Of a stretch of DNA of 64,000 nucleotides, positions 29,063 through 48,698 are shown one piece after another. This DNA is from a virus. Numbering within the stretch: the first letter of the stretch is position 1; every line of letters begins with the position of its first letter. The DNA lies in the IMG/VR virus record IMGVR_UViG_3300049165_000116, positions 2,196-66,195 of that record; one strand, given 5' to 3'. The notes under the pieces are model-generated. The model did no database searches, had not been told where the DNA came from, and saw only the letters and a list, made by a program, of their open reading frames with translations. The position numbers and the translations under genes were made by a program.

Positions 29063-29128
29063 GGCAACCCCACGCGTGCGGTGGATTGCCCGGCCCAGAA
29101 CCAGCGGCGAAAATCGGTCTCCAGACTA
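29063..29128 (-). promoter_or_regulatory. Late-gene leader element copy 1 (tape measure)
   Basis: TAGTCT -10; CGCCGCTGGTTCTGGGCCGGGC at 29109-29088; hairpin GGCAATCCAC/GTGGGGTTGCC up to the TTG start. Confidence 0.8.
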
Positions 29129-29460
29129 GCCGGTACTCCGGCCGGTCAGGCGTGCGTCTTCTGCGGCGAGCTGCGCCATGAGGGCCTGGGCGCCGGCCTG
29201 GTCCAGCCTCGTCCCGGGCGGACGGCTCATGCGGCGGCCCTCAGCGCCGGGGACCCGGGGCGGGGCGTAGAGCTGTGCCCGGTTGCGCTCCCGCTCCACC
29301 TCGTCCTCGGCCGCGTCCTCAATGGCGGCCTCGGCCGCCGCGAGCATGACCCTTAGCGGCCACGCGTGGATGTCGATGCCCTGGAGGGCGAGACGCCCCT
29401 CCCACGCGGTCCAGGAGGCGGCGATGCTGGTGCAGAGCCGTTGGACGACGTAGGAGGGCG
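29126..29460 (-). CDS. Tail assembly chaperone, frameshifted (GT-like) extension
   Basis: -1 frame ORF overlapping the TAC 3' end, directly before tape measure. Confidence 0.65.
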
Positions 29461-29904
29461 CTGGCCGCCGGCACCTCCGTACAGCTCCACGACCCACTCC
29501 ATGAGCTCCACCAGGACGCGGTCCGGGAGCCGGAGTCCGGCATCCACGACCTTCGCCCCCTTACGGCCGGCCGCGGCCTCCTCGGCCGACGCCGGGTCAG
29601 CGTAGGAGCCCACTTTCTTCCCGCTGGCGTGGACCTCCCAGCGGGCGAACGACTCGGCCGACTCCGGGAGCATGAGGGAGGCCAGGAACACCCGGAGCGC
29701 GGTGTTCGCGGCGCGGACGTGGGACAGGTCCACGTTCGAGGCGTCGGAGAGGTCCACGTTCAGCCGCTTGGTGGTCTCCTGGAGCCGGCCGTAGGAGTCC
29801 AGGAACTCGTCCCCCATGACCTCGGGGAGGAAGTACAGCGTGACGTCGTCGCCGATCTCGGCGGCGTGAGGTTGGGTGTTGAGCGCGAATTTCTTGTTGG
29901 CCAC
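29353..29904 (-). CDS. Tail assembly chaperone (G-like)
   Basis: Position; LMEWVVELYG...RPPT then low-complexity tail. Confidence 0.75.
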   Translation of the reverse strand: MANKKFALNTQPHAAEIGDDVTLYFLPEVMGDEFLDSYGRLQETTKRLNVDLSDASNVDLSHVRAANTALRVFLASLMLPESAESFARWEVHASGKKVGSYADPASAEEAAAGRKGAKVVDAGLRLPDRVLVELMEWVVELYGGAGGQRPPTSSNGSAPASPPPGPRGRGVSPSRASTSTRGR

Positions 29905-29968
29905 GGGTATGCCCTTCCACTCCCGCGCGGTCGCCCGGCCCAAAACCAGCGGCGTACCCCGAAGGGTA
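29905..29968 (-). promoter_or_regulatory. Late-gene leader element copy 2 (TAC)
   Basis: TACCCT -10; CGCCGCTGGTTTTGGGCCGGGC at 29954-29933; weaker downstream stem. Confidence 0.8.
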
Positions 29969-30000
29969 GCCGCGGCCGGGCCGAGCTCACGGCGGGAAGG

Positions 30001-30378
30001 TCATCGGCCTTCGCGTAGGGCCTCCGCCATGAAGTTGTTGGGCTTCGTCCCGGGGTGGTTGACCCGCTTCGCGAACACTGTCCGGCCGCCCATGTCGAAC
30101 CGGAGGGCTTTCGCCCTCCTGGGCCGGATCACGTGCGGCCTGGTGCCGTCCAGGACGAACCGCACGGCCGGGTGGTTACAGCTGACCACGCCCTGGAGTC
30201 CGCGCGGCCCGGTCTCGATCTTCCAGGACACGTAGTCCCCCATTGAGCCGGGCGCTTTCCGCTCCGCCAGGCCGGCCACCCGCTCCGTGCGTCGGCGGAG
30301 TCCGCGCTCCGCCGGGCCTCCGCGGAGCCGCAGGAGCCGGGCGATACGGCCGGGGTCGATGCGCACCTCTACGCTCAC
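30001..30378 (-). CDS. HK97 gp10-like tail completion protein
   Basis: FV.DGTRPHVIRP...L.F...VF...VNHPGT.PN.F. Confidence 0.75.
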   Translation of the reverse strand: MSVEVRIDPGRIARLLRLRGGPAERGLRRRTERVAGLAERKAPGSMGDYVSWKIETGPRGLQGVVSCNHPAVRFVLDGTRPHVIRPRRAKALRFDMGGRTVFAKRVNHPGTKPNNFMAEALREGR

Positions 30379-30953
30379 GGGCTCTCCTCCTCCGGGCAGC
30401 CGCACGACGGTACGGCGATCGTCACCCGCTGCTCCACCCCCATGCAACCGCCTTCGGGCTCGAGGACGCGTTGCGTACCAGGGGAGAACTGCGGGCCGCG
30501 GCGCCGGGCGCCGGTGGTGGGGAGGCAGCACACCAGCGCGTTGTAGATGGTGGCCGCGTCCACGTGGACCGTTCGGGCCGCCGCCGCCAGGTCGTCGCAC
30601 GACGGCGGACACCCGCGCTCATCCATCGTCGGGGCGCAGCGCAGGAGGGTGATGACCAGCTCCACGGCGATGGCGGCGGGCGCCGGGCAGTTGCGGGCGC
30701 CGAGGACCACGCGCTCCTCCGTGGGGAACGCCGCGGTGGGGTAGATGCGGGCGACGTGGACGGTGAGTTGGCCGCCGGCGCCGTCCGTGCCGCACGGCTC
30801 GTCACAGCCGTCCCAGGCCGGCGGCCCGGGCGTGACGCACGCGCGGCACGGACAACCGGGCTGGTCCTCCACCTTGGCAGCGGTGGCGTCCAGGGCGGCG
30901 CACACGCAGCCGAGGACGGTCTCCGCGAGCTCGTGGACGGCGAGCGGGCTCAT
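30375..30953 (-). CDS. Tail terminator-like neck protein
   Basis: Position after adaptor; Cys-rich; PEGGC.G motif. Confidence 0.6.
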   Translation of the reverse strand: MSPLAVHELAETVLGCVCAALDATAAKVEDQPGCPCRACVTPGPPAWDGCDEPCGTDGAGGQLTVHVARIYPTAAFPTEERVVLGARNCPAPAAIAVELVITLLRCAPTMDERGCPPSCDDLAAAARTVHVDAATIYNALVCCLPTTGARRRGPQFSPGTQRVLEPEGGCMGVEQRVTIAVPSCGCPEEESP

Positions 30954-31765
30954 GGCCATGTCGTCACCCGCGGGGCCTTCCGGTCGGGGCTGTAGACCCT
31001 GCTCGGGCTCGCCAGCCGGTGAGGGTTGACGGTGCTCAACCACAGGTCAGTGAGCGGGAGGCCGGTGCGGCCCTCCGCGAAGATGACCGTGGGGTCCGCC
31101 ATTTCGATCTCCACACCCCGGCGCACCACGCGCGTGACGTTGCCGGGGAGCCGGCACTCGCCGCACCCCTTCGTCCCGGCGGGGAGGCACGCCAGGACCA
31201 GTTGGCACGTGAGCTCCGAGACGGCGGCGATGGCGGCCTCATCCAGCGGGAGCCCCCACCGGTAGGTCACGGTGAACGTGCCGGGCGCGCCCTCGGGGGC
31301 GGCGAGGTCCTGGCACGTCGGCCAACACTCCCCGTCAGTGCGGACCAGGAGGCCGGGGGCGTCCACGCGGTACGCCTCGGGGACCAGGTCCTCCCCGTCC
31401 ACGGACACGTTGACCACGTCGTACACGGGCCCGCGGAGCTGGACCTCGCAGAGCTCTCCGCATGAGCACGAGGACCGGCACCCGCAGACGTTCGCGTTGC
31501 GCCAGGCGCCGTCCGCGCCGATGTACGGCACCCAGGGCCCCGTCCCGGCGCCGGCCTGGAAGCTGACCGGGGCGGCCTCCGCGCAGGAGCGGCGGCACGG
31601 CCGGACGGTCACCGGGCACGGCCCCCACCGCATCCCGGAGAGCCGCCATAGGGTCTGGGAGGCCACCCGCTGCCAGCGCTCGATGACGGCCGGGTCCAGG
31701 TCCTCGGGGAGCTGGCAGCAGAGGTCTACCGGCCACGGGTCACACGGCCCGATCTGGAGCGGCAT
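30950..31765 (-). CDS. Head-to-tail adaptor
   Basis: A...LW.LSG..WG.C..TVRPC; LVRTDG..WP.CQD; C.LP..VT...R.GV. Confidence 0.7.
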   Translation of the reverse strand: MPLQIGPCDPWPVDLCCQLPEDLDPAVIERWQRVASQTLWRLSGMRWGPCPVTVRPCRRSCAEAAPVSFQAGAGTGPWVPYIGADGAWRNANVCGCRSSCSCGELCEVQLRGPVYDVVNVSVDGEDLVPEAYRVDAPGLLVRTDGECWPTCQDLAAPEGAPGTFTVTYRWGLPLDEAAIAAVSELTCQLVLACLPAGTKGCGECRLPGNVTRVVRRGVEIEMADPTVIFAEGRTGLPLTDLWLSTVNPHRLASPSRVYSPDRKAPRVTTWP

Positions 31766-32482: not shown

Positions 32483-32484
32483 GG

Positions 32485-33186
32485 TCAGGACGCCAGGCAG
32501 AGGTCCCCGGCCACCGGGGAGTAGGTGCACGTGGGCTCCGGCGGCGCCACGTTCGTGACGAAGGTCCGCCGGTGACAGTTCGAGCCGAGCGGGGTGAGGA
32601 GCGGCCCCGCCGTGCCCGCGGCGTCGATCGGCATGACGTCATACGGGCCGACACCCCACGCGCCGCCGGCGCGGGTGGCACCGGACAGGGTGAGGCTGGC
32701 CGCCTCGGCCCCGACCTCGATGTTGCCGAGCTGCCCGTTCGTCACCCACGGGAGGAGGAAGTAGATCCAGGCGCCCTCCCCGCCGCCGGTGGCGCAGACA
32801 TCCTCACCCAGGACCTCGGCCCAGAGTTCGATGGCAAATCCGCTGTTGCACTGGACGGAACAGTCGTCGTAGCCGATGGGCTCGCCGTTGTAGCCGTACA
32901 CCACGGGGTTGCCCGTGGTGATCTCGATCAGCTCCGGGGAGACGGCGAAGAAGTTGAGTTCGAGGTCGAACCCCCTGAACGAGGGGCAGCCGCGCTTGAA
33001 TCCACAGATCCGGCCGTTGGCCGCTCGGTACTCGACGTCTTCGCCTTCCTGCACGTTTGGGTTCATGCCGAGGGTGGCGAAGCAGTCGAAGGTGAACGCG
33101 TTGTCGTCGCCACAGACGGGCCGGCCGCAGCCGTCCACGCGCGTGACCCGGATGACGTCGGCGTTGGCGATGAGGGGACAGGGCAC
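32485..33186 (-). CDS. Major tail (tube) protein
   Basis: RVTRVD.CG, A.G..C, FAIELW, YF.LPW; own leader element with RBS GGAGG. Confidence 0.75.
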   Translation of the reverse strand: MPCPLIANADVIRVTRVDGCGRPVCGDDNAFTFDCFATLGMNPNVQEGEDVEYRAANGRICGFKRGCPSFRGFDLELNFFAVSPELIEITTGNPVVYGYNGEPIGYDDCSVQCNSGFAIELWAEVLGEDVCATGGGEGAWIYFLLPWVTNGQLGNIEVGAEAASLTLSGATRAGGAWGVGPYDVMPIDAAGTAGPLLTPLGSNCHRRTFVTNVAPPEPTCTYSPVAGDLCLAS

Positions 33187-33249
33187 GGGGGCCTCCAACA
33201 GACGGTGTTGGTGGCCCGGCCCACAACCAGCGGCGACAGCAACAGCATA
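33187..33249 (-). promoter_or_regulatory. Late-gene leader element copy 3 (major tail)
   Basis: TATGCT -10; CGCCGCTGGTTGTGGGCCGGGC at 33235-33214; hairpin GGGCCACCAACA/TGTTGGAGGCCC covers GGAGG. Confidence 0.85.
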
Positions 33250-33342
33250 GCTGCGCCGGTCCTGTCCAATCGGGGTCAACGAAGCGCGGTACCGCCGGGG
33301 AAGGGCCCAGCGGTACCGCGCGGCTCCAGGACGGGAGGGTGC

Positions 33343-33534: not shown

Positions 33535-33545
33535 AGGGACGCTCC

Positions 33546-35081
33546 TTACGGGGTGTTGGTCTGCGTGTCGATCGTGGCGTCGGACACCCAGGAGTGGATG
33601 GCGGTCACCTGTCCGGCGACCACGCGGATGGCGGGGAGCATGATGCAGGAGGCGCCGGAGCCCGCAGGGATGTTCCACAGCGTCTCGTTCGCGGTGCCGT
33701 TGCCGCGCTCCCGGTGCGCCTGTCCGACGGCGGTGAGGTGCCCCCACATCGGGCGGACCTGGAAGGCGCCCCCGTCCTGCTGAACGACCATGCCGAGCTC
33801 GAACACCGCGTCAGCGGAGTGCGTGATGTCCCAGGTCACCGAGTTGGTGACCTCGTATCCCCAGGGCCGGCAGTTGTTCCCAAGGAAGTTGGCCGGGATG
33901 TTGAAGGCCTGGTTGGCGCCGGGGTCGATGATCGCCCATCCGCCAGTCGGGCCGATCGGGGTCAGCCACCCGCCGAGGAAGTGCTCCACATAGATGTGGT
34001 CCTGGGCGCTGTAGTGCTCGGGCGGGGTCCAGAGCTCGCCGGTGGCCGGGTCGCACTTGAGCGTGGACTCCACGGCGACGTCGCACGCCCAGGGCCAGGC
34101 CTCCGACCCGGCCGCGGGAACGACGACGAGGGGCGCGGCGGCGGTGCCGTCACCCGCGAGGCCGCACCCCGTCTCCAGCGGCGGGTCCGGCGGCACCATG
34201 AGGCGGCCGTCCGTGCCCATGGTGAGCTGGTTCCCGGCGTCGGCGGAGGGGGCCACCAGGAGGCCGTTCGCGGTCGCCTCCAGGCCGTTGGGCTCCGGGG
34301 CAACGATGACGTCCGCCGCCAGGACGTACGGGTCCGTTGGGGTCCCGGTCCCGGTGAGGGTGGTGTTCACCGTGTTCGTGTCGGTGGCCTGGAGCGCCGT
34401 TCCGGTCGCTGTGATCTCCCCGGTGGCGGGGTCGTACGTGATGCCGTCCCCGGCGATGAGGCAGCCGCGGACCTGCTCACACTCCAGGTACAGGCCGTCC
34501 GGACCGGCCTGGAGGAGCTGCGTCCCGCCGCCGGGCGGCGCCGGGTCCAGGATCACGTCTGCGGTGACCTCGTACGGGTCGCCGGCGGTGCCGGTGCCGG
34601 TGATCTCCACGTCCACCGTGGCGGAGTCCATGGCGGCCAGGGCGGTGGAGGCGGCCGGGGTGTAGATCCCGCCGTCCCCGCCGATAGTCGTGGTGTTCCC
34701 GGCGTCGCCGGACACCTGGACGGAGATGACGCCGGTGGTCGGGTCGTAGTCCGTGCCGTCCCCGGCGGAGATGCAGCCGCGGACCTGCTCGCACTCCAGG
34801 TACAGGCCGTCCGGGCCGACCTGGAGGAGCTGCGTCCCGCCGCCGGGCGGCGCCGGGTCCAGGACGACGGCGGCGCTCACCACGTACGGGTCCGCGGCGG
34901 TGCCGGTGCCGGTGACCGTGGTGTCCACGGTCGCGGTGTCGGTCGCCTGGAGCGCGGTGGGCGTGGCCGCGCCCGTGCTGATGATGTAGGGGGTGGTCGG
35001 GCTGCCGTTGCCGTCCACGGTGACGCCGGGTCCGGCAACCACTGTGCACTTGCAGCCAGGAGAGCCGCAGCACTTCGCCAT
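33546..35081 (-). CDS. Repeat-containing fibre-like structural protein
   Basis: MAKCCGSPGCKC; three TGTGT..DPY repeats; duplicated LDPAPPGGGTQLLQ.GPDGLYLECEQVRGC. Confidence 0.75.
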   Translation of the reverse strand: MAKCCGSPGCKCTVVAGPGVTVDGNGSPTTPYIISTGAATPTALQATDTATVDTTVTGTGTAADPYVVSAAVVLDPAPPGGGTQLLQVGPDGLYLECEQVRGCISAGDGTDYDPTTGVISVQVSGDAGNTTTIGGDGGIYTPAASTALAAMDSATVDVEITGTGTAGDPYEVTADVILDPAPPGGGTQLLQAGPDGLYLECEQVRGCLIAGDGITYDPATGEITATGTALQATDTNTVNTTLTGTGTPTDPYVLAADVIVAPEPNGLEATANGLLVAPSADAGNQLTMGTDGRLMVPPDPPLETGCGLAGDGTAAAPLVVVPAAGSEAWPWACDVAVESTLKCDPATGELWTPPEHYSAQDHIYVEHFLGGWLTPIGPTGGWAIIDPGANQAFNIPANFLGNNCRPWGYEVTNSVTWDITHSADAVFELGMVVQQDGGAFQVRPMWGHLTAVGQAHRERGNGTANETLWNIPAGSGASCIMLPAIRVVAGQVTAIHSWVSDATIDTQTNTP

Positions 35082-35150
35082 GAGGGGGCTCCTCGCGGTG
35101 TCGCATGGGAGTCGCCCGGCCCACAACCAGCGGCGGCACTGTCGAGTCTA
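35082..35150 (-). promoter_or_regulatory. Late-gene leader element copy 4
   Basis: TAGACT -10; CGCCGCTGGTTGTGGGCCGGGC at 35135-35114; GGG..CTCC/GGAGCCC stem covers the RBS. Confidence 0.85.
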
Positions 35151-36137: not shown

Positions 36138-36151
36138 GTTGCTCCTTTCGG

Positions 36152-36457: not shown

Positions 36458-36464
36458 CGGCCTG

Positions 36465-37619: not shown

Positions 37620-38303
37620 TCAGTCGGTGATCTTGATCCATGTGACGTAGTTCCGGCTGGCCGGCATGGTCGCGCTCTGGAACACCGTGTTCGGGCAGGC
37701 CGTGGAGTCCTGGAAAAGACCTCGTAGGCGCAGCGTGCGCGAGCCCTGGGCCGCCGTGACCACGCTGATATGCGTGATGGGGGACGTGGCCGACTGACAT
37801 GTCTGGAGGACCGTCCCGTCATTCGCCTTGGAGAACTGGTGCTGCATGATCGTGCGCGGCCCGGCCTCCACGGCCCCGCTGGCGTTGTCGAAGATGGCGC
37901 CCTCAATCCACGCGTTCGTGCAGTAGTTGACCTGGGCGCAGACCTGCGCCCGCGCGTCCCAGGACAGGTAGTAGCGGCCGGGCTCCGGGAGGGTCACGGC
38001 CAGGGCCGTGTTCACCCACTGGCCGGGCGTCGGCAGCAGGTTGGCGGCTGTGGCGAGGACAGCCTCCCCCGAGACCGGTGACAGGCGGGCGCCGATCTGC
38101 CAGGCGTCCGGGCAGCCGCCGGGGTGGACGATATCGACGTCCACGGACCGGGTCGCGCCGACCGGGGCGGGCGCGCTGGACGGCAGTGCCGCCAGGCTCG
38201 TCCTGGGGACGAGGAGCCCGGCCGGCGTGGTGGTCAGGGCGTTGCACGCCTGCGGGTCCACCGCAGGCGTGCCGCCCCTCAGTCCGGCGTCGGTTCCCGT
38301 CAT
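37620..38303 (-). CDS. Fibre-tip-like structural protein
   Basis: ACNAL....GLLVP; GQWVNT.L.VTLPEPGRY. Confidence 0.65.
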   Translation of the reverse strand: MTGTDAGLRGGTPAVDPQACNALTTTPAGLLVPRTSLAALPSSAPAPVGATRSVDVDIVHPGGCPDAWQIGARLSPVSGEAVLATAANLLPTPGQWVNTALAVTLPEPGRYYLSWDARAQVCAQVNYCTNAWIEGAIFDNASGAVEAGPRTIMQHQFSKANDGTVLQTCQSATSPITHISVVTAAQGSRTLRLRGLFQDSTACPNTVFQSATMPASRNYVTWIKITD

Positions 38304-41300
38304 CCGTCCGCGCTCCCCTTGGCCGTCCAGTTCAGGACGTAGTCCGTCGCGGCCGTCGCCCCGGCGAAGGAGGCCGCCGCGAGCGATGAGTCGTCGGTGT
38401 CGGCCACGCTCCACGTCAGCGTCATGCCGGCCGGGACCGCCTGGGCGGCCCCTGTGGACATGGTGACGTTGAGGACGCCGGCCAGGACGGTGACGCTCAC
38501 GGACTGGAGGCCCGGAGCCTCCGTCTTGAGGTTCTGCGGTGCGGTGCCGGTGACGCGCCGGATACCGGTGGACACGGGGGCGTCGGCCGGGCCCGTCATG
38601 GAGGAGGAGCAGGAACGGACCGTGCCGACCGGCGTGTACGCCTCTCCGGTGAGGTCGGTGTCCGTGGTGACGATCTGGTCACCCGCGTAGGAGAAGTGCC
38701 GCAGGAAGCTACCCGCGTCGTCGCACAGGAGGACCGGTTCCGATCCGGTGCCGCACGGCGCGACGGACCAGAACTCCGGCAGCTCCTCACGCCGGGCGCC
38801 GGTGTCGTCGAGGTAGTACACGGTGCCGTCACAGCACACCATGCGCGTCCAAGAACGCTGCCCGTCAGGGAGCTGGTACGACGCGATGAGGTGCACCATC
38901 AGGGCCGCCCCGCCGCCGCCGGCGACGGTCTCCTGAATATGGAGGATCATCTCGTTCGCCCCAGGCTTGACGCCTGGCACGGCGGTCGGCCCGAAGGTGG
39001 TCGGCGGCTCCGTGTGGTCCGCGCCCACCGGCTGCCAGGCCCCGGTGTTCAGCCTCCACGCCACCAGGTTCTGGTCAGCGTTGAGGACGGTCGCCGCGAT
39101 CCGGATGGACGCCGGGTCAGCGGCGGGCGGAAGGTTGAACGTGGCTCGGGCGTACCAGGACTGCACACCGATCGTCGGGCCCTCCCCCGGGCGGGGCGGG
39201 TTGCTCTGGACCGGGCTGCCGTTGGGGTGCGCGGATACCCAGTGCGCGGTACCGGCCGGGGTGCCGCCGTCCTGAGTGGTCCACCCGGCCACGGGCGGCG
39301 TGCGGTACATGTCGTACCAGGGGCCGGTCAGGGCCGGGCTCCACCGCCAGGTCGGGTCCACGCTGTTGTCGGTGGCGTTGGCCGCATTGGAGATAAACTC
39401 CCGCGACTCCGTGCGCGTCGCGTCCACGCACACCTGGACGGGCTGGCAGCAGTCGTCATCGCACTGGACGGTGGCCGTCGCCGGCAGCGGCTGCCGGGTG
39501 GCCGTGTCCACGGTGCTGATGACGCCCTCGCAGTCCGCGACCTTCACCGCCTCCCACGGCACCGTGGACGCGACGACGCCGCACAGCCGCTCATTGTGCG
39601 GGGTCGGCGGGTCCGCGAACGCGCTCGTGGTGACGGTGAGGCGGACGGGCTCGGAGAACTCGATCCGGACCCGGTCTCCGCCGTCCAGGAGCATCTTCGT
39701 GGTGTTGGCGGCGAGGGAGAGGCCGTTACCGGCCAGGGCCCGGAGCGTGACGGTGACGCCGGCGATCGTCGCCGTGCCGACGTAGCCCACCGGCGACTCG
39801 GCCGGGTCCGCGGGGATCGCCGGGGCGAAGGCAGCGAAGTTCAGGTCCCCGCCGAGGTCCGGGCTGTTGAACCCGAGCCCGGAGACGGTGCCCGTGCCCG
39901 ACAGATACGTGCCCTCCCACGAGGTGACCCGGTCCCCGTAGGCGTAGGTGGGGTTCAAAGCGGTGCCGAGCCAGCAGCCGGGGAAGGCGGCGGCAGCGAG
40001 GTCGAATCCGGTCGCGGTGTCGGGCAGGCTGTAGACGCACTCACCCAGGACCGTCTTGTCGCACGGCGGGGTCGGCGTGCACTGGCTGACCATGCCGAGC
40101 GGGGTGAACGGGCTCACGCCGTCCAGATGGGTGTCCGTGGTGGAGGTGACCTCGCCGTCACAGTCCCGGCAGATCGTCCGGAGGAACTGGCTTGCCGGGG
40201 TGACCTCCAGCGCGCCGACCCACGAGGACTGGAACTGCCCGCACCGGGCGTACCGGGCGCCGAGGTAGAACGTGCTCAGGGACGACACCGGCCCGCTGGT
40301 ACGGAACGTCGCCGATGCGGCGCGTGTCGGGTTGGTGAGGTTCACGCACGGGTCGCCGGTCTGCGCGGCGGTCACGCACACCTGGCCCGTGACCGGGTCG
40401 TAGATGAACCCCTCGGGGAGTGAGACCACCTCCGAGCCGGCCGGGATCTGCATGCAGTTGTCGTCTGGCTGCGCCGGGTTCGCGACGTACGCCATGTAGA
40501 CCGAGAACTCGACCACCGACGGCCGGTTGAACGTGAACGTGTACGTCGGGACGGTGGTGAGCGGGAACGACTCGGGCTTGCCCCACCACGCGCCGTCAGC
40601 GTTGCTGAGCCTGCTGTTGACGGCACCACTACCGGCAGCGGCGCCGGCGCGTGCGGTCCAGGAGACACCATTCGGGAGCGTCCCGGCCGACACGCCCGCA
40701 CCTGTGATGGTGGCGGGGTCGGCGCCGCCGTCGCACAGGAGCAGCGTCTCGCAGTTGAGGCACGGCGATGAGCAGACGCCGACGGTGCCTGTCGGGACGT
40801 AGACCGTGCCGTCGAGGTGGTAGTCGCTACGGCCGACGATCGCGCCGTTCTCGTCGCGCCGGAAGTCCCGCAGGAACTCTGTCACCGTGCCATCGGCCGC
40901 CGTGTCGCACAGGATCACGGCGTCCTGCTCGGGCTGCTCGACCCCGGCCGGGCAGGTCGTGACGGTGCCAGTCGGGGTGTAGGTGCCGCCGGTGACCGCA
41001 TCCACCAGGCGCACGGAGGAGATCGCGCCGGTGTCGTCGTAGGTGTACTCCACGAGGACCAGGCCGACGACCTCGCCGTCCGCGTCCACGTCACAGAACG
41101 TGCCGGAGACCTGGATCGACCTGCTGTCACCGCAGGCGACCGTGCCGGCCGGGACCGCGCCGGCCGTCCACGCGCCCGTGGTGAGGTTGATCCACCCCTC
41201 GCTGGTGACCACGCCTTCGCAGTCCCGTACGACGGTGACCGCGATCGGCGTGCCGTCCGCGAGGCATAGGCCCACGCTGGTGACCGGCGTCGTGCGTGAG

Positions 41301-41548
41301 GCGCAGTCGTCACCGTCGCACGGTTGGAGGGTGCCCTGCACCGTGTACGGCGCGCCCGTGGCCGGGTCCACGGTGCGGGTGCCGACCCTGGCGCCGCTGG
41401 TGGTGTCGTACACGGGCTCCACGAGCACGGTGGCGGCGACGGTGCCGTCTGCCTGGACGTCGCAGAGGAGGACGGTCTCCACGTCCACGCGGGGCGTGGC
41501 CGCGGCCCCGGAGACGATTACGGGCCCCTGCCCGCAGCATCCACTCAC
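38300..41548 (-). CDS. Giant Cys/Thr-rich modular virion-associated protein A
   Basis: 1082 aa; recurrent LCD/FLR/LDG.Y..G.V..C units; lies between capsid and tail genes. Confidence 0.8.
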   Translation of the reverse strand: MSGCCGQGPVIVSGAAATPRVDVETVLLCDVQADGTVAATVLVEPVYDTTSGARVGTRTVDPATGAPYTVQGTLQPCDGDDCASRTTPVTSVGLCLADGTPIAVTVVRDCEGVVTSEGWINLTTGAWTAGAVPAGTVACGDSRSIQVSGTFCDVDADGEVVGLVLVEYTYDDTGAISSVRLVDAVTGGTYTPTGTVTTCPAGVEQPEQDAVILCDTAADGTVTEFLRDFRRDENGAIVGRSDYHLDGTVYVPTGTVGVCSSPCLNCETLLLCDGGADPATITGAGVSAGTLPNGVSWTARAGAAAGSGAVNSRLSNADGAWWGKPESFPLTTVPTYTFTFNRPSVVEFSVYMAYVANPAQPDDNCMQIPAGSEVVSLPEGFIYDPVTGQVCVTAAQTGDPCVNLTNPTRAASATFRTSGPVSSLSTFYLGARYARCGQFQSSWVGALEVTPASQFLRTICRDCDGEVTSTTDTHLDGVSPFTPLGMVSQCTPTPPCDKTVLGECVYSLPDTATGFDLAAAAFPGCWLGTALNPTYAYGDRVTSWEGTYLSGTGTVSGLGFNSPDLGGDLNFAAFAPAIPADPAESPVGYVGTATIAGVTVTLRALAGNGLSLAANTTKMLLDGGDRVRIEFSEPVRLTVTTSAFADPPTPHNERLCGVVASTVPWEAVKVADCEGVISTVDTATRQPLPATATVQCDDDCCQPVQVCVDATRTESREFISNAANATDNSVDPTWRWSPALTGPWYDMYRTPPVAGWTTQDGGTPAGTAHWVSAHPNGSPVQSNPPRPGEGPTIGVQSWYARATFNLPPAADPASIRIAATVLNADQNLVAWRLNTGAWQPVGADHTEPPTTFGPTAVPGVKPGANEMILHIQETVAGGGGAALMVHLIASYQLPDGQRSWTRMVCCDGTVYYLDDTGARREELPEFWSVAPCGTGSEPVLLCDDAGSFLRHFSYAGDQIVTTDTDLTGEAYTPVGTVRSCSSSMTGPADAPVSTGIRRVTGTAPQNLKTEAPGLQSVSVTVLAGVLNVTMSTGAAQAVPAGMTLTWSVADTDDSSLAAASFAGATAATDYVLNWTAKGSADG

Positions 41549-44500
41549 AGCGTTACTCCTTGGGTCCAGGTGATCGTGACGGTGCCGGTGTCCGCCGTGA
41601 TGGTGAGCGGGCCGGTGAGGAGTGCGTCGGCGTCACGGGCGACGCTCCAGGTGGCGGCCTCGCCCGTGTGCAGGGTGCTGGCGCCGTCCGCGGTGGTGAT
41701 CGTGCCGGTGCCGCCGTGGGCGATCGCGGTCACGGACTGGAGGGTGGGGTAGGCCGCGGCGGTCCAGGAGGCGCCGGCCGGGGCGAGTTCGAGCCGGCGG
41801 GCCTGGACGGCCGTCGCGCGCTCGGCGCCCTCGTCGGTCTCCGCGCAGTCGATCGGGGCGACCGGCGTATACGGGGCGGTGAGGTCCGGCGTGTAGGTGC
41901 CGAGGGACGTGAGGACGCCCTCGCAATCGACCCCCAGGAGCTCCAGGTAGTCCGTATCCGCGATGCCGTCGCCGTCCGCGTCGTCGCACCGGCACGCCTC
42001 GATCACGCTTTGCACGTCGCACGGTGTGACGGCTCCGGCGGCCCCACCATCCGCGGTGCACACCCCGGCCTCACCCTGCACGACGTACGGGGTGGTGCCG
42101 TCCAGGCTGAGGTCCTGGGTCGAGGTGAGGACGCCGTCACAGTCGTAGGTGAAGCGCCGGAGGAACGGTGTGCGGGTGAGTGTCAGGACCGCCGTCCGCA
42201 GCTCGATCGGCATGAGGAAGAGGTCCCGGTCGTTGACCGGGCCGCCGGTCGTCTGGTCGGTGAACCGGATGGTGACCGCGCCCGTGGCGGGGGCGATGAA
42301 CGCCAGGGGCGGCATGTCCTCAGTGAGCACGCCGCCGGGGAACACGTTCGACCCGTTGGAGACGTTGCGGGTCCTGCTGGCGAGGACCGTGGCGCCGTCC
42401 AGGATCTCCAGCCGGTAGATGGCGGCGTTGCCGACCGGGTTGGAGCCTCCCGCACCGATCCACGCGGACGCGAACCGGAACTCGTAGAGCGTGGCGGGGA
42501 GTAGACCACCGACCGTGAGTTCCGCTACGCCGTTGGCCTCCTGGTTCGCCTGGGCGAACCACAGGGTGGTGCCGTTGTTGGCAGCCACCACGTTCCCGGT
42601 CAGGGTGAAGTCGCGGGCCGGGGTCGGGATGGGGGCCTGCGGGTCGTACGTCAGGTCACAGAGCTGGACGATCTCGGTGTCCCCGCACGGCTGTTCCGGG
42701 CAGCAGGAGCCGCCGCCGGCCTGGCACTGGCCGACCTCACCGACGACCGTGTACGGCTGGCCGTCCAGCGTGGTGTCCTCCACGCTCATGACCGTGCCCG
42801 TCTCACAGTCCACGGTGACGGTGCGGAGGATCTGTGTCTCACACCCGGCCTGGTCGTACGTGACGGCGGTGGTGAACGCGGAGAGCGTCCAGCCGGTACG
42901 GCGCGGGCTCGGGACACACGAAGCCGTGTCGTCGTAGGCATCGAGGGCGAGCGCGAAGGCGACGTTGCCGGCGGCCAGGTCGGCGGCCGAGACGTCGGCC
43001 TCCACGGTGAGCGTGCCGAAGTAGCCGACCGGGGTGCCGGCCGGGAGGACGGTGAGCGCGGCCTGGGTGGTGCCGGTGAAGAGGCGGAGATGCCCGGTCG
43101 GCCCACAGCCGTTGTCCGGGCCGTTCTGCTGGACGTTGAGCGTGACGGTGACGTGCGCGGTGCCGGTGTCGCAGGCGGGGCGCGGGGCCTGGAGGGTGGC
43201 GGCGAGGGTGTTGACCCTTCCGGTGGTGCCGGGCTGCGGGCCCGTCCCGGGCGGGAGGGTGAGCGTGCCGCCGTCCCACAGGGCCTGTCCGCCGGCGGCC
43301 GGGGCGCCGGTGGGGAACGGGTAGTACGGCGTCGGGTCGGTGTTGGTCGCCGTGGCCGTGGGGGTGCCGCCGGTGGGCAGGTCGCACAGCAGGAGGCTGC
43401 TGGTGTTGCGGCACGGCTGCTCTGGGCAGCAGGCTCCGCTGCCTGCGGTGCACTGGCCGACCTCGCCGGCCGGGGTGTACGGGGCGCCGTCGAGGGTGGT
43501 GTCCGTGACGGCTGTGACCTCGCCCGTCTCGCAGTCCACGGTGACGTTCCGGAGGAACTGGGTGGCGCATCCGGTCTGGTCGTAGACGACGCTGGTGGCG
43601 GCCTGGTCCACGATCCAGCCGCCGACGTGGGCGGCGGTCTGCCAGGTCTCCAGCATGGCGGCGAGGTGGACGTTCCCGGCGGCGAGGTCGGCGGCCGGGA
43701 CCTGCCCGGACACGGTGAGGGTGCCGGTGTAGCCGACCGGCGCGTTGTTGGGGGTGGTCACGATGGCGACGCGGGTACTGCCCGCCCACAGAGCCCACAG
43801 GCCGTTACCGCCGAGCGCTGAGGAAGGGCCGGTGCGCTGGACGCGGATGCTGGCCGTGACGGTGGCGGTGCCGGTATCGCAGCCGGGCCGCGGTGCCTGG
43901 ACGTTCGCCGCGATCGAGCGCAAATGCTGGTTGATGTGGCCGGGGCCGGCCCCGCTGTCCGCAGGGATGGTGATGGCGCCGCCCGCCCACAGGTTCGCGG
44001 CGCCGCCCGGGAGCGGCTCCGCTCCGAGGCCGGTCCCCTGGTACGGGGTGGGGTCGGTGTCGCTGACCGTGGGCGTGGGCTCACCGCCGCTCGGCAGGTC
44101 GCACACCAGGACCGTGCTGGAGCTACGGCACGGCTCCGGTGCCGGGGCGCACATGCCCACGGTGCCGGTGACGGTGTGAGGCTGACCGTCCAGGGTGTAG
44201 TCCGTGTGCCCGGTGATCTGCCCGGTAGCAGGGTCGCGCCGATAGTCCCGCACGAAGCTGGTGACCGTGCCGTCCGCCGCGGTGTCGCAGAGAACCGTAA
44301 GGTCCTGCTCCGGCTGCTCCTCACCGGCGGTTCCAGGGCAGCGCCGTAGCTGCCCCTGGAGGGTGTACGTGGCCCCCGTGGCGGGGTCTACCAGGCGCAC
44401 GGTGGCCAGGGAGCCGTCCGGGTTGTAGGCGTACTCGACCAGGACCAGGCCGTGGACGTCTCCGGTGGCCGGGTCGGTGTCGCAGAGGAGCCCGGCGAGC

Positions 44501-45303
44501 TCGTACGCGCGGGAGTCCCCGCACGCCGAGGCGCCGGCCGGGGGCGGCCCGCTGGTGAACGTGCCGGTGGTGAGGTTGAGCCACCCGTCTTGTGTGATGG
44601 CGCCGGTGTCGCAGTCCCGCGTGATGATGACGGCGAGTGGCGTCCCGTCAGGGAGGCAGAGGCCGAGGGTGGCCGCCGGCGTGGTCTGCGCCTCGCACGG
44701 CGCGCCGGTGCCGCTGCACGTGCCGACCGTGCCGGTGACGACGTGCGGGGTGATCCCGTCCAGCGCGAAGTCCAGGTAGGTGGCGGTGCCGTTGAGCCAC
44801 GTGTAGCGGCGCAGGAAGGGGCCGCTGTCGTCACAGAGGTGGACCGTCTCGGCCTCCGGGCAGCCGTACGTGCAGTCCATCGGGGCGGTGGGCGCGTACG
44901 GGACGGAGGGGTCGTCCTGGTAGGTCAGGAGGAGCGTGGCGGTGCCGTCCGCGGCGATGCACCAGAGCTCCGTGTACGTGGTGTCCGGCTGGCCGTCGCC
45001 GGTGGTGTCGTCGCACCGCTGGCGGCACAGCGTCTCCACGCACGCGGTAGGCGTGTCGCACGGACCGGCGTCCGCCGGCGGCGCCCCGGGGGTGAAGACG
45101 CCCGTGGTGGGGTCGATCCATCCGACCTGGACCGGATCGGCCGGCGCGGTGCCGCACGTCCCGCACGCGGAGCGGACGATGACGAGCACTGGCGTACCGT
45201 CCGCCCGGCACAGCGGTGTGGAGGTGATGGACGGCGCGCACGCGCACGCGCCGGGCTCGCCGGTGCCTCCGTCCGGGCCGCAGGGAAGTGGCTCAACGGG
45301 CAT
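41545..45303 (-). CDS. Giant Cys/Thr-rich modular virion-associated protein B
   Basis: 1252 aa; same repeat unit with inserted beta domains. Confidence 0.8.
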   Translation of the reverse strand: MPVEPLPCGPDGGTGEPGACACAPSITSTPLCRADGTPVLVIVRSACGTCGTAPADPVQVGWIDPTTGVFTPGAPPADAGPCDTPTACVETLCRQRCDDTTGDGQPDTTYTELWCIAADGTATLLLTYQDDPSVPYAPTAPMDCTYGCPEAETVHLCDDSGPFLRRYTWLNGTATYLDFALDGITPHVVTGTVGTCSGTGAPCEAQTTPAATLGLCLPDGTPLAVIITRDCDTGAITQDGWLNLTTGTFTSGPPPAGASACGDSRAYELAGLLCDTDPATGDVHGLVLVEYAYNPDGSLATVRLVDPATGATYTLQGQLRRCPGTAGEEQPEQDLTVLCDTAADGTVTSFVRDYRRDPATGQITGHTDYTLDGQPHTVTGTVGMCAPAPEPCRSSSTVLVCDLPSGGEPTPTVSDTDPTPYQGTGLGAEPLPGGAANLWAGGAITIPADSGAGPGHINQHLRSIAANVQAPRPGCDTGTATVTASIRVQRTGPSSALGGNGLWALWAGSTRVAIVTTPNNAPVGYTGTLTVSGQVPAADLAAGNVHLAAMLETWQTAAHVGGWIVDQAATSVVYDQTGCATQFLRNVTVDCETGEVTAVTDTTLDGAPYTPAGEVGQCTAGSGACCPEQPCRNTSSLLLCDLPTGGTPTATATNTDPTPYYPFPTGAPAAGGQALWDGGTLTLPPGTGPQPGTTGRVNTLAATLQAPRPACDTGTAHVTVTLNVQQNGPDNGCGPTGHLRLFTGTTQAALTVLPAGTPVGYFGTLTVEADVSAADLAAGNVAFALALDAYDDTASCVPSPRRTGWTLSAFTTAVTYDQAGCETQILRTVTVDCETGTVMSVEDTTLDGQPYTVVGEVGQCQAGGGSCCPEQPCGDTEIVQLCDLTYDPQAPIPTPARDFTLTGNVVAANNGTTLWFAQANQEANGVAELTVGGLLPATLYEFRFASAWIGAGGSNPVGNAAIYRLEILDGATVLASRTRNVSNGSNVFPGGVLTEDMPPLAFIAPATGAVTIRFTDQTTGGPVNDRDLFLMPIELRTAVLTLTRTPFLRRFTYDCDGVLTSTQDLSLDGTTPYVVQGEAGVCTADGGAAGAVTPCDVQSVIEACRCDDADGDGIADTDYLELLGVDCEGVLTSLGTYTPDLTAPYTPVAPIDCAETDEGAERATAVQARRLELAPAGASWTAAAYPTLQSVTAIAHGGTGTITTADGASTLHTGEAATWSVARDADALLTGPLTITADTGTVTITWTQGVTL

Positions 45304-45306
45304 CGG

Positions 45307-45990: not shown

Positions 45991-46829
45991 GGACAGACCT
46001 CCACCTGAATCGCGCACACCGTGCACGTCGTGCCGACCACGTACGTCCGCTCCAGCAGCACGCGCCGATCGTTGGTGCGGATGTTCACGGACGCGGACCG
46101 GTCCGGGATGACGTCGAGCGGGCCGCGCCGGATGTGGACGGGCCCGGTGATGTAGAGCCAGGTTGTCCCCGGCTCGGCGGGGAGGCCGCCGGGGCCGTAG
46201 TTCAGGGCGCTGTACCCCGCCCCGATCACGGCGCAGTTCCCGGCCAGGGTGCCGAGGCTCCCGGTCTCCTGATCCTTGCTGAGGATGTTGCAGCAGCCGA
46301 GGAGCGCGGCGGCGCCGGCGGGGACGTGGAGGGTGCCCACGCCTCCGTAGGACTCCGCGAGGCACCCCTCCAGCGCGGCGACGCCCTGCGCGATGGACAC
46401 CGGGCCCGCCGCGGGGGTCAGGTCCACCGCGGCCATGGAGAGGTGGGCCTCCATGAACGCCGCCTCCAGGCCCTGCTGTTCCCCGAGGTCCATCGTGGCC
46501 CGGGCGTGCTCCACGGCCTCCTCGTAGGACCAGCCCATGGTGGAGCACTCCACGCCGGTGTAGAGGGTGATCGGGTCGGCGGCCTCGATCTGCGGCCGGT
46601 CGAACTCCTTCCGGGCGGGCTCGCCCGGGGACTCCCCGGGCGACTCCTCCACGGCGCACGGGTCGATCCAGCGGCGGACCGGGGCGCAGCCGAGGGCCAG
46701 CCACTCCACGCCCATGAGCTCGTGGACGTCATTGACGTCCACGACGGTGGTGCACGCGTTGAGGATGCCGTGCGGGAGCGGCGTACCGGGGATGGGCTGA
46801 ACGGCTCTACGCCAACCTGCCGGCATCAC
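45987..46829 (-). CDS. Second capsid protein (pentamer-like)
   Basis: Follows capsid; P...Y....CS..G, YGG.G.LH, GAGY, W.Y.TG, N....L.ER.Y as in cluster-B-like actinophages (from memory). Confidence 0.6.
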   Translation of the reverse strand: MMPAGWRRAVQPIPGTPLPHGILNACTTVVDVNDVHELMGVEWLALGCAPVRRWIDPCAVEESPGESPGEPARKEFDRPQIEAADPITLYTGVECSTMGWSYEEAVEHARATMDLGEQQGLEAAFMEAHLSMAAVDLTPAAGPVSIAQGVAALEGCLAESYGGVGTLHVPAGAAALLGCCNILSKDQETGSLGTLAGNCAVIGAGYSALNYGPGGLPAEPGTTWLYITGPVHIRRGPLDVIPDRSASVNIRTNDRRVLLERTYVVGTTCTVCAIQVEVCP

Positions 46830-46907
46830 GCACCTCCTGTCTCTGCTCAGGGAGTGCCGGGCCCGCGTTTCAGGTCCGCGGGCCCGGCACGTTCCGGGGA
46901 GGTGCCG

Positions 46908-48629
46908 TCAGGCGATCGGGCAGGCCAGCGCGGTCTGTCCGCCGGTGGCGCCGGTCGGGCAGATCGGCACCGTGACCAGGCGCGTGTCCACGGAGCGGTC
47001 CACCAGCGCGACGCACTCCTCGGCGAACAACGCGGTGTAATCGTTGGTGGAGAACTTGGTGCTGTCGTGGATGACGCCCAGGTTGACTTCCTCGCCGCGG
47101 CCGATCTGCAGCGAGCCCGCCGGGTACATGAGGAAGCTGAGCGCGGCCGGCCAGTCGGTGGCCGCGGTCGCGCCGCCGATCTCGGAGGGGACACCGGTTG
47201 TCGGGGTCGGGGCCAGGCCGCGCGCCCACTGCACGCGCACGCCGAGCGTGGAGAACGCGTTCTGGATGCAGTTCGGGTCGATCTCGCAGATGTCCTTACC
47301 GTTCTGACGGGCGACGTCCGCCAGGAATGCGTTCTTCGACCACCACGGGAACACGACCTCCAGCGCCGTGCCGTCACAGAGGGCGTGGCGCTCGATCATG
47401 TCCGCGGCCTGGAGCGCCACCGCGGCGTAGATGGCGGAGAGGGCGGCCATGGACGCCGGGAGCGTGACGGCCTGGGCGGTCGCCACGGCCTGGGCGAAGA
47501 GGACCTGACGGAGCCTGATCTCGTGCGCCACCATGGAGTTGCGGAGGTACCAGGCGACCAGCTCCGGGAAATGGCGCTGGGTCAGGATGCCGGCCTCCAG
47601 GCAGACGCCGACGGCATCACACCGGACCTCCACGGGGTCCGGGCACGGCACCCGGTAACAGGGCTTCGTGGCGCCGGAGATGTCGTCCGCCTCGGTGTGG
47701 ACCCAGGTCATGGCGGAGACGTCCAGGCTCGGCGTCTTGTAGTACCTCAACCCTCCCCTCGCGAGCTGGATCTCCGGGGCGTCCCAGAGCATGTCCGGGC
47801 ACGCCACGTCCGTGAGCTCGTACACGGTCTCCGAGGGCGCGCACCAGCCGCCGGAGGCGACCAGGTCACCCTGGGGCAGGCGCCGCTGGTTCGAGGCCGT
47901 GAGCGCCACGGTGGTCCCCTCCGGGGCGGAGGAGGAGTCCGTGACGATGAGCTCCTGCGGGTACGGGTGCCGGTAGGAAATGACCTGGCCCACGCCCCCA
48001 CCTGCGGTTTTGAGGGCGTTGGCGCGGCTGATGATGCCGGCGGTGATGTCGTTGAAGTCCAGGGGCGCGCCCGGGGTGTAGCCCGGGACGTCCACGGCCG
48101 CGGTGATCCGGGTACCCGGCGCCGGGGGCTCGGGCAGGACGCGCGGCTGGACCCGGCGCACGGCGCCGAGGTTGAGGGCGGGGCGGGCGAGCGCGGAGGC
48201 GGTGGCCTGGCCGGCGGGCGCGGCCGGGACGACGGGGGCCGGCTCCGCGGGCGCGGCCGGCGCGGCCGGGGCGGCCGGGGTGGTCTCGGCGGCGGCGGTG
48301 GCCTCCTGTCCCTCGCCGCCCTCCGGGGCGGTCTCGGCGGAGGCGTCCTCCCCGCGGACCTGCGCGGCCAGGGCCTCGATCTCGTTGACGGCGGCCTCGG
48401 CGGCCTCCCGGCGGGTGCGCTGCTCGGACCGGATCGCTTCGGAACCGGCGGCCAGGGCGCGCATGTTGGCCAGGGAGCCGTCCGTGATCTCGTCCTGGGC
48501 GGAGAGCGCGGCGAAGGTCTGGGCGGTGACGTTGAGGGCTTCCGCCAGGTCCTCGTCCGTCAGGGAGGAGAGGAAGGCGGTGTCAGAGAGCTGGGTGAGG
48601 TCCTGCGGGAGCTCGAAGGCGTCGGCCAT
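46908..48629 (-). CDS. Major capsid protein with scaffold-like N-terminus
   Basis: Helical acidic N-terminus, Ala/Pro linker, LVASGGWCAPSET.Y, RGG..Y, HDS....NDY...F.EE. Confidence 0.85.
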   Translation of the reverse strand: MADAFELPQDLTQLSDTAFLSSLTDEDLAEALNVTAQTFAALSAQDEITDGSLANMRALAAGSEAIRSEQRTRREAAEAAVNEIEALAAQVRGEDASAETAPEGGEGQEATAAAETTPAAPAAPAAPAEPAPVVPAAPAGQATASALARPALNLGAVRRVQPRVLPEPPAPGTRITAAVDVPGYTPGAPLDFNDITAGIISRANALKTAGGGVGQVISYRHPYPQELIVTDSSSAPEGTTVALTASNQRRLPQGDLVASGGWCAPSETVYELTDVACPDMLWDAPEIQLARGGLRYYKTPSLDVSAMTWVHTEADDISGATKPCYRVPCPDPVEVRCDAVGVCLEAGILTQRHFPELVAWYLRNSMVAHEIRLRQVLFAQAVATAQAVTLPASMAALSAIYAAVALQAADMIERHALCDGTALEVVFPWWSKNAFLADVARQNGKDICEIDPNCIQNAFSTLGVRVQWARGLAPTPTTGVPSEIGGATAATDWPAALSFLMYPAGSLQIGRGEEVNLGVIHDSTKFSTNDYTALFAEECVALVDRSVDTRLVTVPICPTGATGGQTALACPIA

Positions 48630-48698
48630 GGGTCGGGTCTCCAGGGGGTGAATCCCAGTGACCCGGCCCAAAACCAGCGGTGCTTGGGGTGAATGGTA
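48630..48698 (-). promoter_or_regulatory. Late-gene leader element copy 5 (major capsid)
   Basis: TACCAT -10; CACCGCTGGTTTTGGGCCGGGT at 48682-48661; GGGCCGGGTC/GACCCGACCC stem closes over GGAG up to ATG. Confidence 0.85.

Follow-up and report, generated by a model that had tools for sequence, protein, structure and literature searches.

The element described here is a bulged RNA hairpin of 21-22 nt that lies in the leaders of late virion genes in virus record IMGVR_UViG_3300049165_000116 of IMG/VR (66,195 bp, 72.6% GC), of which the window, the whole stretch of DNA that was analysed, covers 64 kb. The hairpin precedes the tape measure, major tail and major capsid genes, among others, and is also found before the homologous genes of related phages. 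It has been selected as RNA, is specific to the phages and prophages of this capsid and tail lineage, and is fixed in position with respect to both a promoter-like box and the start codon. It represents a real, covariation-supported leader hairpin of a large actinophage lineage, and is apparently undescribed. That the hairpin acts as a factor-read tag, governing the translation or expression of the late virion genes, has in our judgement a little less than an even chance of being correct.

Copies of the hairpin in the window

The 22-nt pattern CRCCGCTGGTTNTGGGCCGGGY has five exact matches in the window, all on the minus strand and all where the initial annotation of this DNA had placed them (Table 1). 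A sixth match, with 2 mismatches and on the plus strand, was overlooked by that annotation. Shuffling leads to an expectation of 0.05 matches, and none of 100 shuffles reaches six. A covariance model built from other phages only scores the six window sites at 30-37.5 bits, with the next match at 16 bits, and no further copies are found in the whole 66-kb virus record. The virion gene block holds five of the six copies and the early region holds none.

The start distances of 25-35 nt originally given for the five minus-strand copies are correct, at 25, 28, 27, 32 and 31 nt. The genes behind them had been named as tape measure, tail assembly chaperone (TAC), major tail, fibre-like and major capsid genes; four of these identities hold, but the "fibre-like" 511-aa protein has no family match.

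Table 1. Positions in the window of the leader hairpins, the -10-like boxes and linkers on either side of them, and the associated genes
Feature	Position	Strand	Details
Hairpin copy 1, before tape measure	29088..29109	-	exact; 35.3 bits; start codon 25 nt on
Hairpin copy 2, before TAC-like gene	29933..29954	-	exact; 36.8 bits; start codon 28 nt on
Hairpin copy 3, before major tail	33214..33235	-	exact; 37.5 bits; start codon 27 nt on
Hairpin copy 4, before 511-aa repeat protein	35114..35135	-	exact; 36.1 bits; start codon 32 nt on
Hairpin copy 5, before major capsid	48661..48682	-	exact; 32.9 bits; start codon 31 nt on; pair 2-22 is A-U
Hairpin copy 6, before DUF6292 gene	55174..55195	+	30 bits, E ~1e-5; start codon 26 nt on; U4.G20 and C10-G16
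-10-like box TAGTCT, tape measure unit	29123-29128	-	13 nt before motif position 1
-10-like box TACCCT, TAC unit	29963-29968	-	8 nt before motif position 1
-10-like box TATGCT, major tail unit	33244-33249	-	8 nt before motif position 1
-10-like box TAGACT, 511-aa gene unit	35145-35150	-	9 nt before motif position 1
-10-like box TACCAT, capsid unit	48693-48698	-	10 nt before motif position 1
Tape measure leader linker with Shine-Dalgarno (SD) sequence	29063..29087	-	predicted pairing of GGGCAAUCC with GGGGUUGCC beside TTG start
Major tail leader linker with SD	33187..33213	-	predicted fold
Capsid leader linker with SD	48630..48660	-	predicted pairing of CGGGUC with GACCCG; helix reaches start codon; z -2.05
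Tape measure gene	25178..29062	-	phrog_305, E 9e-107
TAC-like gene	29353..29904	-	phrog_12617; 40% identity to TurkishDelight gp26, annotated tail assembly chaperone
Major tail protein gene	32485..33186	-	phrog_792, E 2e-91
511-aa repeat protein, possibly fibre	33546..35081	-	no Pfam or PHROG match
Major capsid gene	46908..48629	-	phrog_777, E 3e-165
DUF6292 gene behind copy 6	55222..56301	+	Pfam DUF6292
12-bp GC hairpin without U-tract, directly after capsid stop	46856..46888	-	
Tyrosine integrase	8106-9773	-	tblastn against TurkishDelight
Cro-like XRE protein, basic N-terminal tail	5507-5857	-	
Repressor-like helix-turn-helix (HTH) protein, divergent from Cro-like gene	6017-6469	+	

Secondary structure and covariation

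The motif is numbered C1 R2 C3 C4 G5 C6 U7 G8 G9 Y10 K11 N12 W13 R14 G15 G16 C17 C18 G19 G20 G21 Y22. It folds into a hairpin with seven pairs (2-22, 3-21, 4-20, 6-19, 8-18, 9-17 and 10-16) and a pentaloop that ends in R-G, in which G5 and U7 form single-base bulges on either side of the lone 6-19 pair. In copy 1 the pairs are G2-C22, C3-G21, C4-G20, C6-G19, G8-C18, G9-C17 and U10.G16. The pairing of the 5' RCC with the 3' GGY, which the initial annotation had proposed, corresponds to the outer helix of this structure, and the compensatory change to A-U that it had seen in the capsid copy is indeed present.

Covariation was tested on protein-anchored loci only, because loci fetched with the pattern cannot covary at the positions that the pattern fixes. 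The set consists of 72 distinct copies upstream of major tail homologues, retrieved by protein and not by motif, with all rows kept, including one probable false positive. Within it, 98.0% of the cells are paired (91.7 +/- 0.5 in shuffles) and 32 cells are changed on both sides, against 5.5 +/- 2.0 in shuffles, a value that none of 500 shuffles reaches. The compensatory changes fall at four pairs. Pair 3-21 is CG in 56 copies and UA in 12; pair 4-20 is CG in 49, UA in 11 and UG in 8; and pair 6-19 is CG in 64, AU in 4, GC in 2 and UA in 1. The variants found in the protein-anchored copies are themselves paired: U3 occurs with A21, U4 with A20, and A6, G6 or U6 with U19, C19 or A19. Registers slid by one to three columns give at most 53% pairing, and RNAalifold, run unguided, returns the identical structure. 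Two registers that had been drawn by eye (4-21/6-20/7-19 and 3-20/4-19/5-18/6-16) pair worse than the final one and were discarded.

The sense strand carries 68 G.U pairs (12 when pair 10-16 is left out) and no A.C pairs. Since the wobbles are G.U on the coding strand only, a double-stranded DNA site is excluded and the strand is fixed, in agreement with the original view of an element that works at the RNA level, from the coding strand. Another original suggestion, a DNA site for a late activator, is at odds with both the sense-only G.U pairs and the compensatory changes. A DNA site in the broader sense, either an operator or stoperator of the prophage repressor or a late-activator site downstream of the -10 box, would account for an asymmetric motif that keeps a constant orientation to transcription beside promoters, and the phage is temperate, with integrase, Cro-like and repressor-like genes. 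The arrangement recalls the stoperators of L5 and the Cluster A phages, which are repressor DNA sites spread over the genome, and which are likewise asymmetric, orientation-specific short repeats near gene boundaries in temperate actinophages. Here, however, covariation and sense-only G.U pairs reveal an RNA, and the sites head only late genes. DNA recognition predicts neither compensatory changes that preserve an intramolecular helix nor wobbles confined to one strand; moreover, the distance from the -10 box to the hairpin spans 6 to 14 nt, lytic cluster BG phages carry the hairpin too, and the window has only six sites with none in the early region. We therefore regard a DNA site as barely tenable.

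Stem positions covary, while G5, U7, G8, G9, G15, G16, C17 and C18 are invariant in those leaders, 70 out of 73, to which the fixed-length pattern applies, a count in which only U7 was free to vary, as the pattern itself fixed G5, G8, G9, G15, G16, C17 and C18. Loop positions 10-14 are variable, even between two copies in one leader, and follow the form K-N-W-R-G (for example UUNUG, CGUUA or CCGAG). Tandem copies are found in many leaders, where the second copies are equally conserved. A covarying stem combined with fixed bulges, a fixed upper stem and a fixed loop G would be the look of a hairpin that is recognised by a protein or peptide.

Occurrence in related phages and prophages

In order to avoid circularity, relatives were retrieved by protein. 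Eighty loci with major tail homologues of 51-85% identity reduce to 73 unique upstream regions, and the element is found in all 73: 71 fit a permissive regular expression, another carries one inserted base, and the last is truncated where its contig ends. Upstream of the capsid gene, all 43 loci of at least 46% capsid identity have a plus-strand covariance model match 25-65 nt upstream, 40 of them at E <= 0.007 and three weaker, whereas at 30-36% identity such a match occurs in only 5 of 37. These counts also bear on the notion that the copies are selfish or neutral repeats without regulatory function, for instance small mobile elements or scars left by recombination. Such repeats might well sit at gene junctions and sometimes be duplicated in tandem, as these do, but they would not be expected to hold a fixed position relative to the -10 box and start codon, to lie always in the sense orientation, or to be kept in 73/73 and 43/43 orthologous leaders with compensatory evolution; this explanation is scarcely credible.

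Among the cultured phages, the covariance model finds eight copies in TurkishDelight, two in YDN12 and three in Gordonia phage Bakery. In TurkishDelight, copies are present in the leaders of the capsid, major tail (a tandem pair), TAC, tape measure (two copies), minor tail, gp32 and tailspike genes. The copies of YDN12, in the capsid and major tail leaders, are of a variant loop type, and those of Bakery, in the leaders of the capsid, major tail and tape measure genes, are of a further loop type. No covariance model match is found in phiC31 or in Microbacterium phage RobinRose. The Cluster B2 mycobacteriophage Rosebush has a look-alike that is one base longer, CCGUCUGGCUGCGGGCCGGGG, ~55-75 nt before its capsid start at 12528, with the extra base in the bulge region, and which the covariance model misses. 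Single-copy pattern matches in viral and genome collections outside the actinomycetes were set aside as being at chance level.

In TurkishDelight the gp33 tailspike start is annotated inside the leader hairpin (30557, GTG; region 30545-30592). An in-frame ATG at 30590, with an SD before it, is the more likely start, as judged from the leader sequence.

Five Streptomyces and Kitasatospora genomes have strong matches in single prophage-like blocks of 6, 8 or 9 same-strand copies, and the same five genomes contain nothing above ~30 bits outside these blocks. The confinement of strong matches to prophage-like blocks means that there is no host mimic of the hairpin from which a partner in the host could be guessed.

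A different leader hairpin, AUGGCAGNAGGGCCU, with the motif (A)UGGCAGNAGGGCCU, is found in 6 of the 37 distant capsid relatives, ~110-130 nt before the tblastn capsid match. It is preceded by a TAnnnT -10-like box and followed by an anti-SD helix that starts in the hairpin's 3' strand and in which this strand and the linker pair with the SD. This motif may constitute a sister family of the tag.

No known family accounts for the element, as the initial annotation had surmised. Rfam 15 yields no match at gathering score and, at E <= 1, only an unrelated plastid family at 7841-7879. A literature search that included 14-nt motif strings, and that extended to neither supplements nor subscription papers, found no description of the element and two unrelated string matches. 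PMC13722658 concerns promoter SD13 of phiSASD1, which is an unrelated phage, and early promoters.

Position relative to promoter-like boxes and start codons

The initial annotation had reported TANNNT boxes 8-13 nt before the five motifs; all are present, at 13, 8, 8, 9 and 10 nt, and the spacing proves to be enriched more widely. Of 229 distinct hairpin-consistent contexts, 143 have a TANNNT box whose last T stands 6-11 nt upstream of position 2, 165 have one at 4-20 nt, and none has one at 0-5 nt; the other contexts are for the most part tandem second copies or chance matches. Aligned on the box, the contexts give the logo G-C-T-A-n-a-C-T (GCTAnnCT) with no -35 element, and the stretch between the -10 box and the hairpin has at most 0.26 bits per position. 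Promoters of the sigma-70/HrdB type have a -10 hexamer of the form TAnnnT, with a -35 element being optional; a generic promoter scan found no full promoter in this 72% GC DNA. The TAG of the TAGACT box at 35145-35150 is also the stop codon of the upstream glycosyltransferase gene. On the other side of the element, 19-36 nt separate the hairpin from the start codon in 136 of 153 leaders.

Actinobacterial promoters often consist of a -10 element only, with the transcript starting ~6-8 nt after the hexamer. Because of this start distance and the spacing of the boxes, the hairpin probably forms the 5' end of the transcript or lies only a few bases from it.

Phage Mischief19 has a GTAGACTGGTC (TAGACT) box ~30-35 nt before many late starts with no hairpin, for example at genes 10, 16, 29, 33 and the endolysin gene, and its capsid and major tail leaders retain divergent hairpins of the GAG and CGG classes. 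The hairpin-free boxes imply that the box is a separable promoter element, to which the hairpin is added on a subset of genes.

Predicted folding of the leaders

The hairpin alone is worth ~-5.4 kcal/mol. In the six window leaders, numbered as in Table 1, a competing fold is better than the hairpin fold by 14.3, 0, 11.2, 6.4, 18.6 and 9.1 kcal/mol, respectively, and in five of the six this fold pairs the 3' strand of the hairpin and the linker with the SD and start region. The TAC leader is the only window copy with the hairpin in its predicted minimum free energy (MFE) structure, and there a separate helix masks the SD and the start. Over a larger set, the hairpin is within the MFE structure in only 3 of 153 leaders. 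The GGGCAAUCC and GGGGUUGCC arms of the tape measure leader are kept in eight related tape measure protein (TMP) leaders.

The interaction of the motif with the downstream sequence amounts to -9.3 kcal/mol, against -7.1 with shuffled motifs (111/153, p 5e-10), and the mean probability that the SD is unpaired is 0.296 in native leaders against 0.394 when the linker is shuffled (117/167 lower, p 8e-8). Enforcing the hairpin has a median cost of 9.7 kcal/mol and raises start-codon accessibility from 0.42 to 0.60. In these models the masking of the ribosome-binding site is a real tendency of the leaders, with the SD predicted to be masked mainly by the linker after the hairpin. The 3' strand of the hairpin would often be part of the helix that does the masking, and this is clearest for the tape measure and capsid leaders along with their orthologues. 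The initial annotation had proposed that the 3' end of each copy starts a hairpin that buries the ribosome-binding site, clearly in four copies and weakly in that of TAC; the leaders do tend to mask the SD and start codon, and in the TAC leader the masking helix is a separate one.

The same annotation had inferred a two-state switch; the models favour a true two-state competition only modestly. The different leader hairpin of the six distant capsid relatives, which likewise runs into an anti-SD helix, is an observation in its favour. A leader that can in principle take two folds might also be a riboswitch that senses a ligand, or a toehold to which a small RNA binds in trans, both of which were suggested at the outset. 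The hairpin, however, with its 22 nt and its pentaloop, is judged too small for known ligand pockets, neither type is backed by an Rfam family match, and no reverse-complementary copy is found at <=3 mismatches in the window or the whole record. Both are very improbable.

Candidate readers

Pfam and PHROG scans, which covered 39 of the 49 predicted window proteins, were combined with tblastn of the 49 proteins against four hairpin-bearing phages. Common to all of these phages are virion proteins and one non-virion family only. The latter, phrog_645, carries an "RNase E" label (window 60094-60519) and was considered as the reader, but it aligns as an N-terminal HTH protein beside the terminase and is probably the small terminase. 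It was rejected also on the grounds that it is present in Rosebush and RobinRose, has matches in 7 of 14 control bacteria, and lacks any PDB or Pfam match. A scan for arginine-rich sequences returned just off-frame open reading frames (ORFs) and the Cro-like protein, with no convincing RNA-binding candidate, and the scans of the window proteins found no Com-like zinc-finger protein.

Possible modes of action

The arrangement suggests a module of three parts: a host-type, -10-only promoter box (GCTAnnCT); an RNA hairpin that would begin ~6-11 nt after the box, at or near the 5' end of the transcript; and a further 25-32 nt in which the SD and the start codon lie. A recognition surface for one trans-acting macromolecule, most likely a protein encoded by the phage or the host, may be formed by the invariant bulges together with the upper stem and the loop G. 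Binding would stabilise the weak hairpin against the stabler fold in which its 3' strand and the linker close on the SD and start region. In this way it could license the translation of the virion-gene messages, and thereby stabilise them, in a coordinated manner, according to a logic of the Com/mom type. In its strictest form, this proposal would make the late genes a post-transcriptional regulon, in which every major virion-gene message bears the tag at its 5' end and one dedicated reader, an RNA-binding factor of the phage or of its host that might be a peptide rich in arginine, has to bind the tag before translation or polymerase run-on. We advance this form tentatively, as more doubtful than probable.

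A number of observations weigh against the factor-read model. Copy 6 has no TANNNT box at the usual distance, and both the predicted transcription start and the promoter role of the box are deduced from spacing. The TAC copy shows no competition between folds. Shuffling of the motif alone barely shifts SD accessibility (0.296 against 0.306, p 0.017), and enforcing the hairpin opens the SD only from 0.30 to 0.34. A swap of the 19-21 triplet, made to look for its co-evolution with the SD region, gave a mixed outcome, in that 5 of the 11 leaders of the GAG class would gain 2-6 kcal/mol in pairing from the canonical GGG. The z-scores of the six window leaders range from -2.05 to +0.81. The predicted folds as a whole carry little weight, because GC-rich leaders pair promiscuously. 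The searches yielded no partner; the five hairpin-bearing phages compared share only virion proteins and a small-terminase-like HTH protein. Finally, the lytic relatives tag only the capsid and major tail genes (and TMP in Bakery), whose products are among the most abundant virion proteins, and a device that simply boosts or stabilises expression would explain this no less well than a switch does.

A 5'-terminal stabiliser would need neither a reader nor any effect on translation: the 5' hairpin, together with a hairpin at the 3' end of the capsid unit, would shield abundant late mRNAs from RNases that depend on the 5' end, such as RNase J and RNase E. A start 6-11 nt after the -10 box, probably a few bases from the 5' end, suits this explanation, as do the choice of capsid and major tail as the core carriers in lytic relatives, the 12-bp GC hairpin after the capsid stop (46856-46888) and the weak evidence for a switch. 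A stabiliser needs structure and not sequence, yet the bulges, upper stem and loop G are fixed across capsids that are only ~50% identical while the stem covaries. Tandem second copies are not 5'-terminal and are nevertheless equally conserved, and the hairpin is weak (-5.4 kcal/mol) and the predicted fold in so few leaders. Stabilisation as the sole role is unlikely, although it deserves to be kept in mind.

The hairpin could also be an antitermination tag that, like nut or put sites, acts in the nascent RNA, either alone or with an N-like arginine-rich protein, to modify the polymerase so that it reads through the GC hairpins between late units. It would be the first RNA out after each box, with one hairpin per promoter, and GC hairpins that resemble terminators are found both behind the capsid gene and ahead of the major tail promoter. 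Covariation indicates that the hairpin forms though it is not the thermodynamic fold, which fits a co-transcriptional role. The generic terminator scan found no U-tract terminators in the late region, however, and no boxA-like element is conserved between box and hairpin, the loop is not GNRA-like, the late promoters of Mischief19 work without a hairpin, and a tight distance to the start codon is unneeded for such a function. A search for the N family, in which part of the small ORFs was covered, gave only a Pfam N_peptide match to Bakery gp01 at E 0.14; N-like proteins are too small and variable for the homology searches used, and tend to escape them. Antitermination appears improbable, but is a rival still to be reckoned with.

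Relation to known RNA elements

The closest parallel to a factor-read leader hairpin is the translation-inhibition stem of the mom mRNA in phage Mu, in which the helix masking the ribosome-binding site is immediately preceded by a small hairpin. Com is considered to open the site by binding to this hairpin, resulting in the post-transcriptional activation of a late gene. In the present leaders the masking goes beyond that of shuffled controls. Mu, however, has one site and one gene, whereas the present hairpins number 2-10 per genome and head virion-gene units directly after their promoters. The protein scans also gave no Com-like protein, and competition is only weakly supported: five of six window copies prefer the competing fold, and the contribution of the motif itself is small.

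Lambda boxB is a 5-bp stem with a GNRA-like pentaloop and no bulges, which together with boxA makes up the nut site used with N protein, and the put RNA of HK022 is an element of two stem-loops, ~70 nt in length, that acts without a protein. The present hairpin resembles both in being a short, probably promoter-proximal hairpin of a phage transcript, with a putative sequence-specific recognition and possibly a co-transcriptional action. It differs from nut in its two bulges, its loop, the lack of boxA and its many copies, each 19-36 nt from a start, and from put in being a single hairpin of 21-22 nt, in which tandems are repeats of the same hairpin.

The operator hairpins of the RNA phages MS2 and PP7, and BIV TAR, are small hairpins that owe their specificity for a protein or for a peptide rich in arginine to bulged and loop bases, and not to the stem sequence; BIV TAR has two single-base bulges that flank one pair. 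The present hairpin would be like them in this respect. The MS2 and PP7 operators differ in that they repress the gene under their control and include its start codon, BIV TAR comes from a eukaryotic virus, and none of the three has any sequence relationship to the hairpin.

Among the actinophages, PMC3203893 describes the start-associated sequences (SAS) of Cluster K mycobacteriophages, a 13-bp sequence, GGGATAGGAGCCC, that includes the SD, ends 3-7 bp short of the start codon and precedes non-structural genes only, and the extended SAS (ESAS), which consists of 17-bp inverted repeats with a variable spacer. As set out in that text, SAS and ESAS are akin to the present element in being short, asymmetric, one-orientation repeats before many actinophage genes that are absent from the host and have a suspected role in translation initiation. 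The present element, by comparison with that description (PMC3203893), has another sequence and lies 25-32 nt upstream in the window; it leaves the SD outside, stands at the head of virion genes behind a -10 box, and is a covariation-supported RNA. The same text (PMC3203893) also mentions stoperators.

Genome context

Capsid identity is 78% to Streptomyces phage TurkishDelight and ~51% to YDN12. Most window genes have TurkishDelight homologues by tblastn, including the tyrosine integrase. On account of these homologues, the integrase and the pair of Cro-like and repressor-like HTH genes (Table 1), the phage is read as a temperate, TurkishDelight-like phage with a Streptomyces-type host. The sequencing runs that hold it are six soil-metagenome DNA runs, none of them RNA.

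The 511-aa repeat protein gives a BLASTP E of 0.34 with the TurkishDelight tailspike, and the likeness is limited to an N-terminal MAKC..C. The GC hairpin after the capsid stop and the leader hairpin would bracket a monocistronic capsid unit. Between the capsid and tail genes lie two adjacent giant paralogues (38300-41548 and 41545-45303, minus strand) of 1082 and 1252 aa, both of which match phrog_18824, of unknown function, each over four stretches.

A 1173-aa MuF-fusion protein (49159-52680, minus strand) has a 2H-phosphoesterase-like segment at residues ~355-520, with HLTL and HVCA motifs and a match to phrog_2659, "RNA ligase", as well as an additional weak AbiEi-type HTH match. The protein may be an enzyme that is ejected and acts against defences or on RNA ends. 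Upstream of the DUF1360 gene and the portal block, in the divergent region, the sequence GAATTGATCAGAA occurs as two exact copies 20 nt apart (54886-54898 and 54919-54931, minus strand), which are a candidate operator pair of the head-gene promoter.

Implications

The control of late genes in actinobacteriophages is almost unknown, including in the phages of the SEA-PHAGES collections and in the many prophages of Streptomyces. A 22-nt, covariation-supported element that is present in every close relative examined, and in the cultured TurkishDelight, the YDN12 cluster and Bakery, represents a defined handle on this control. The element also improves annotation, as seen with the start of TurkishDelight gp33, and, should it prove strong and portable as an expression module, could serve as a useful part in the engineering of Streptomyces. 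If the hairpins are indeed read by one reader, then a single molecule would time and balance the production of capsid and tail across many separate promoters, and the second, unrelated tag, AUGGCAGNAGGGCCU, would mean that the principle has evolved or diversified more than once.

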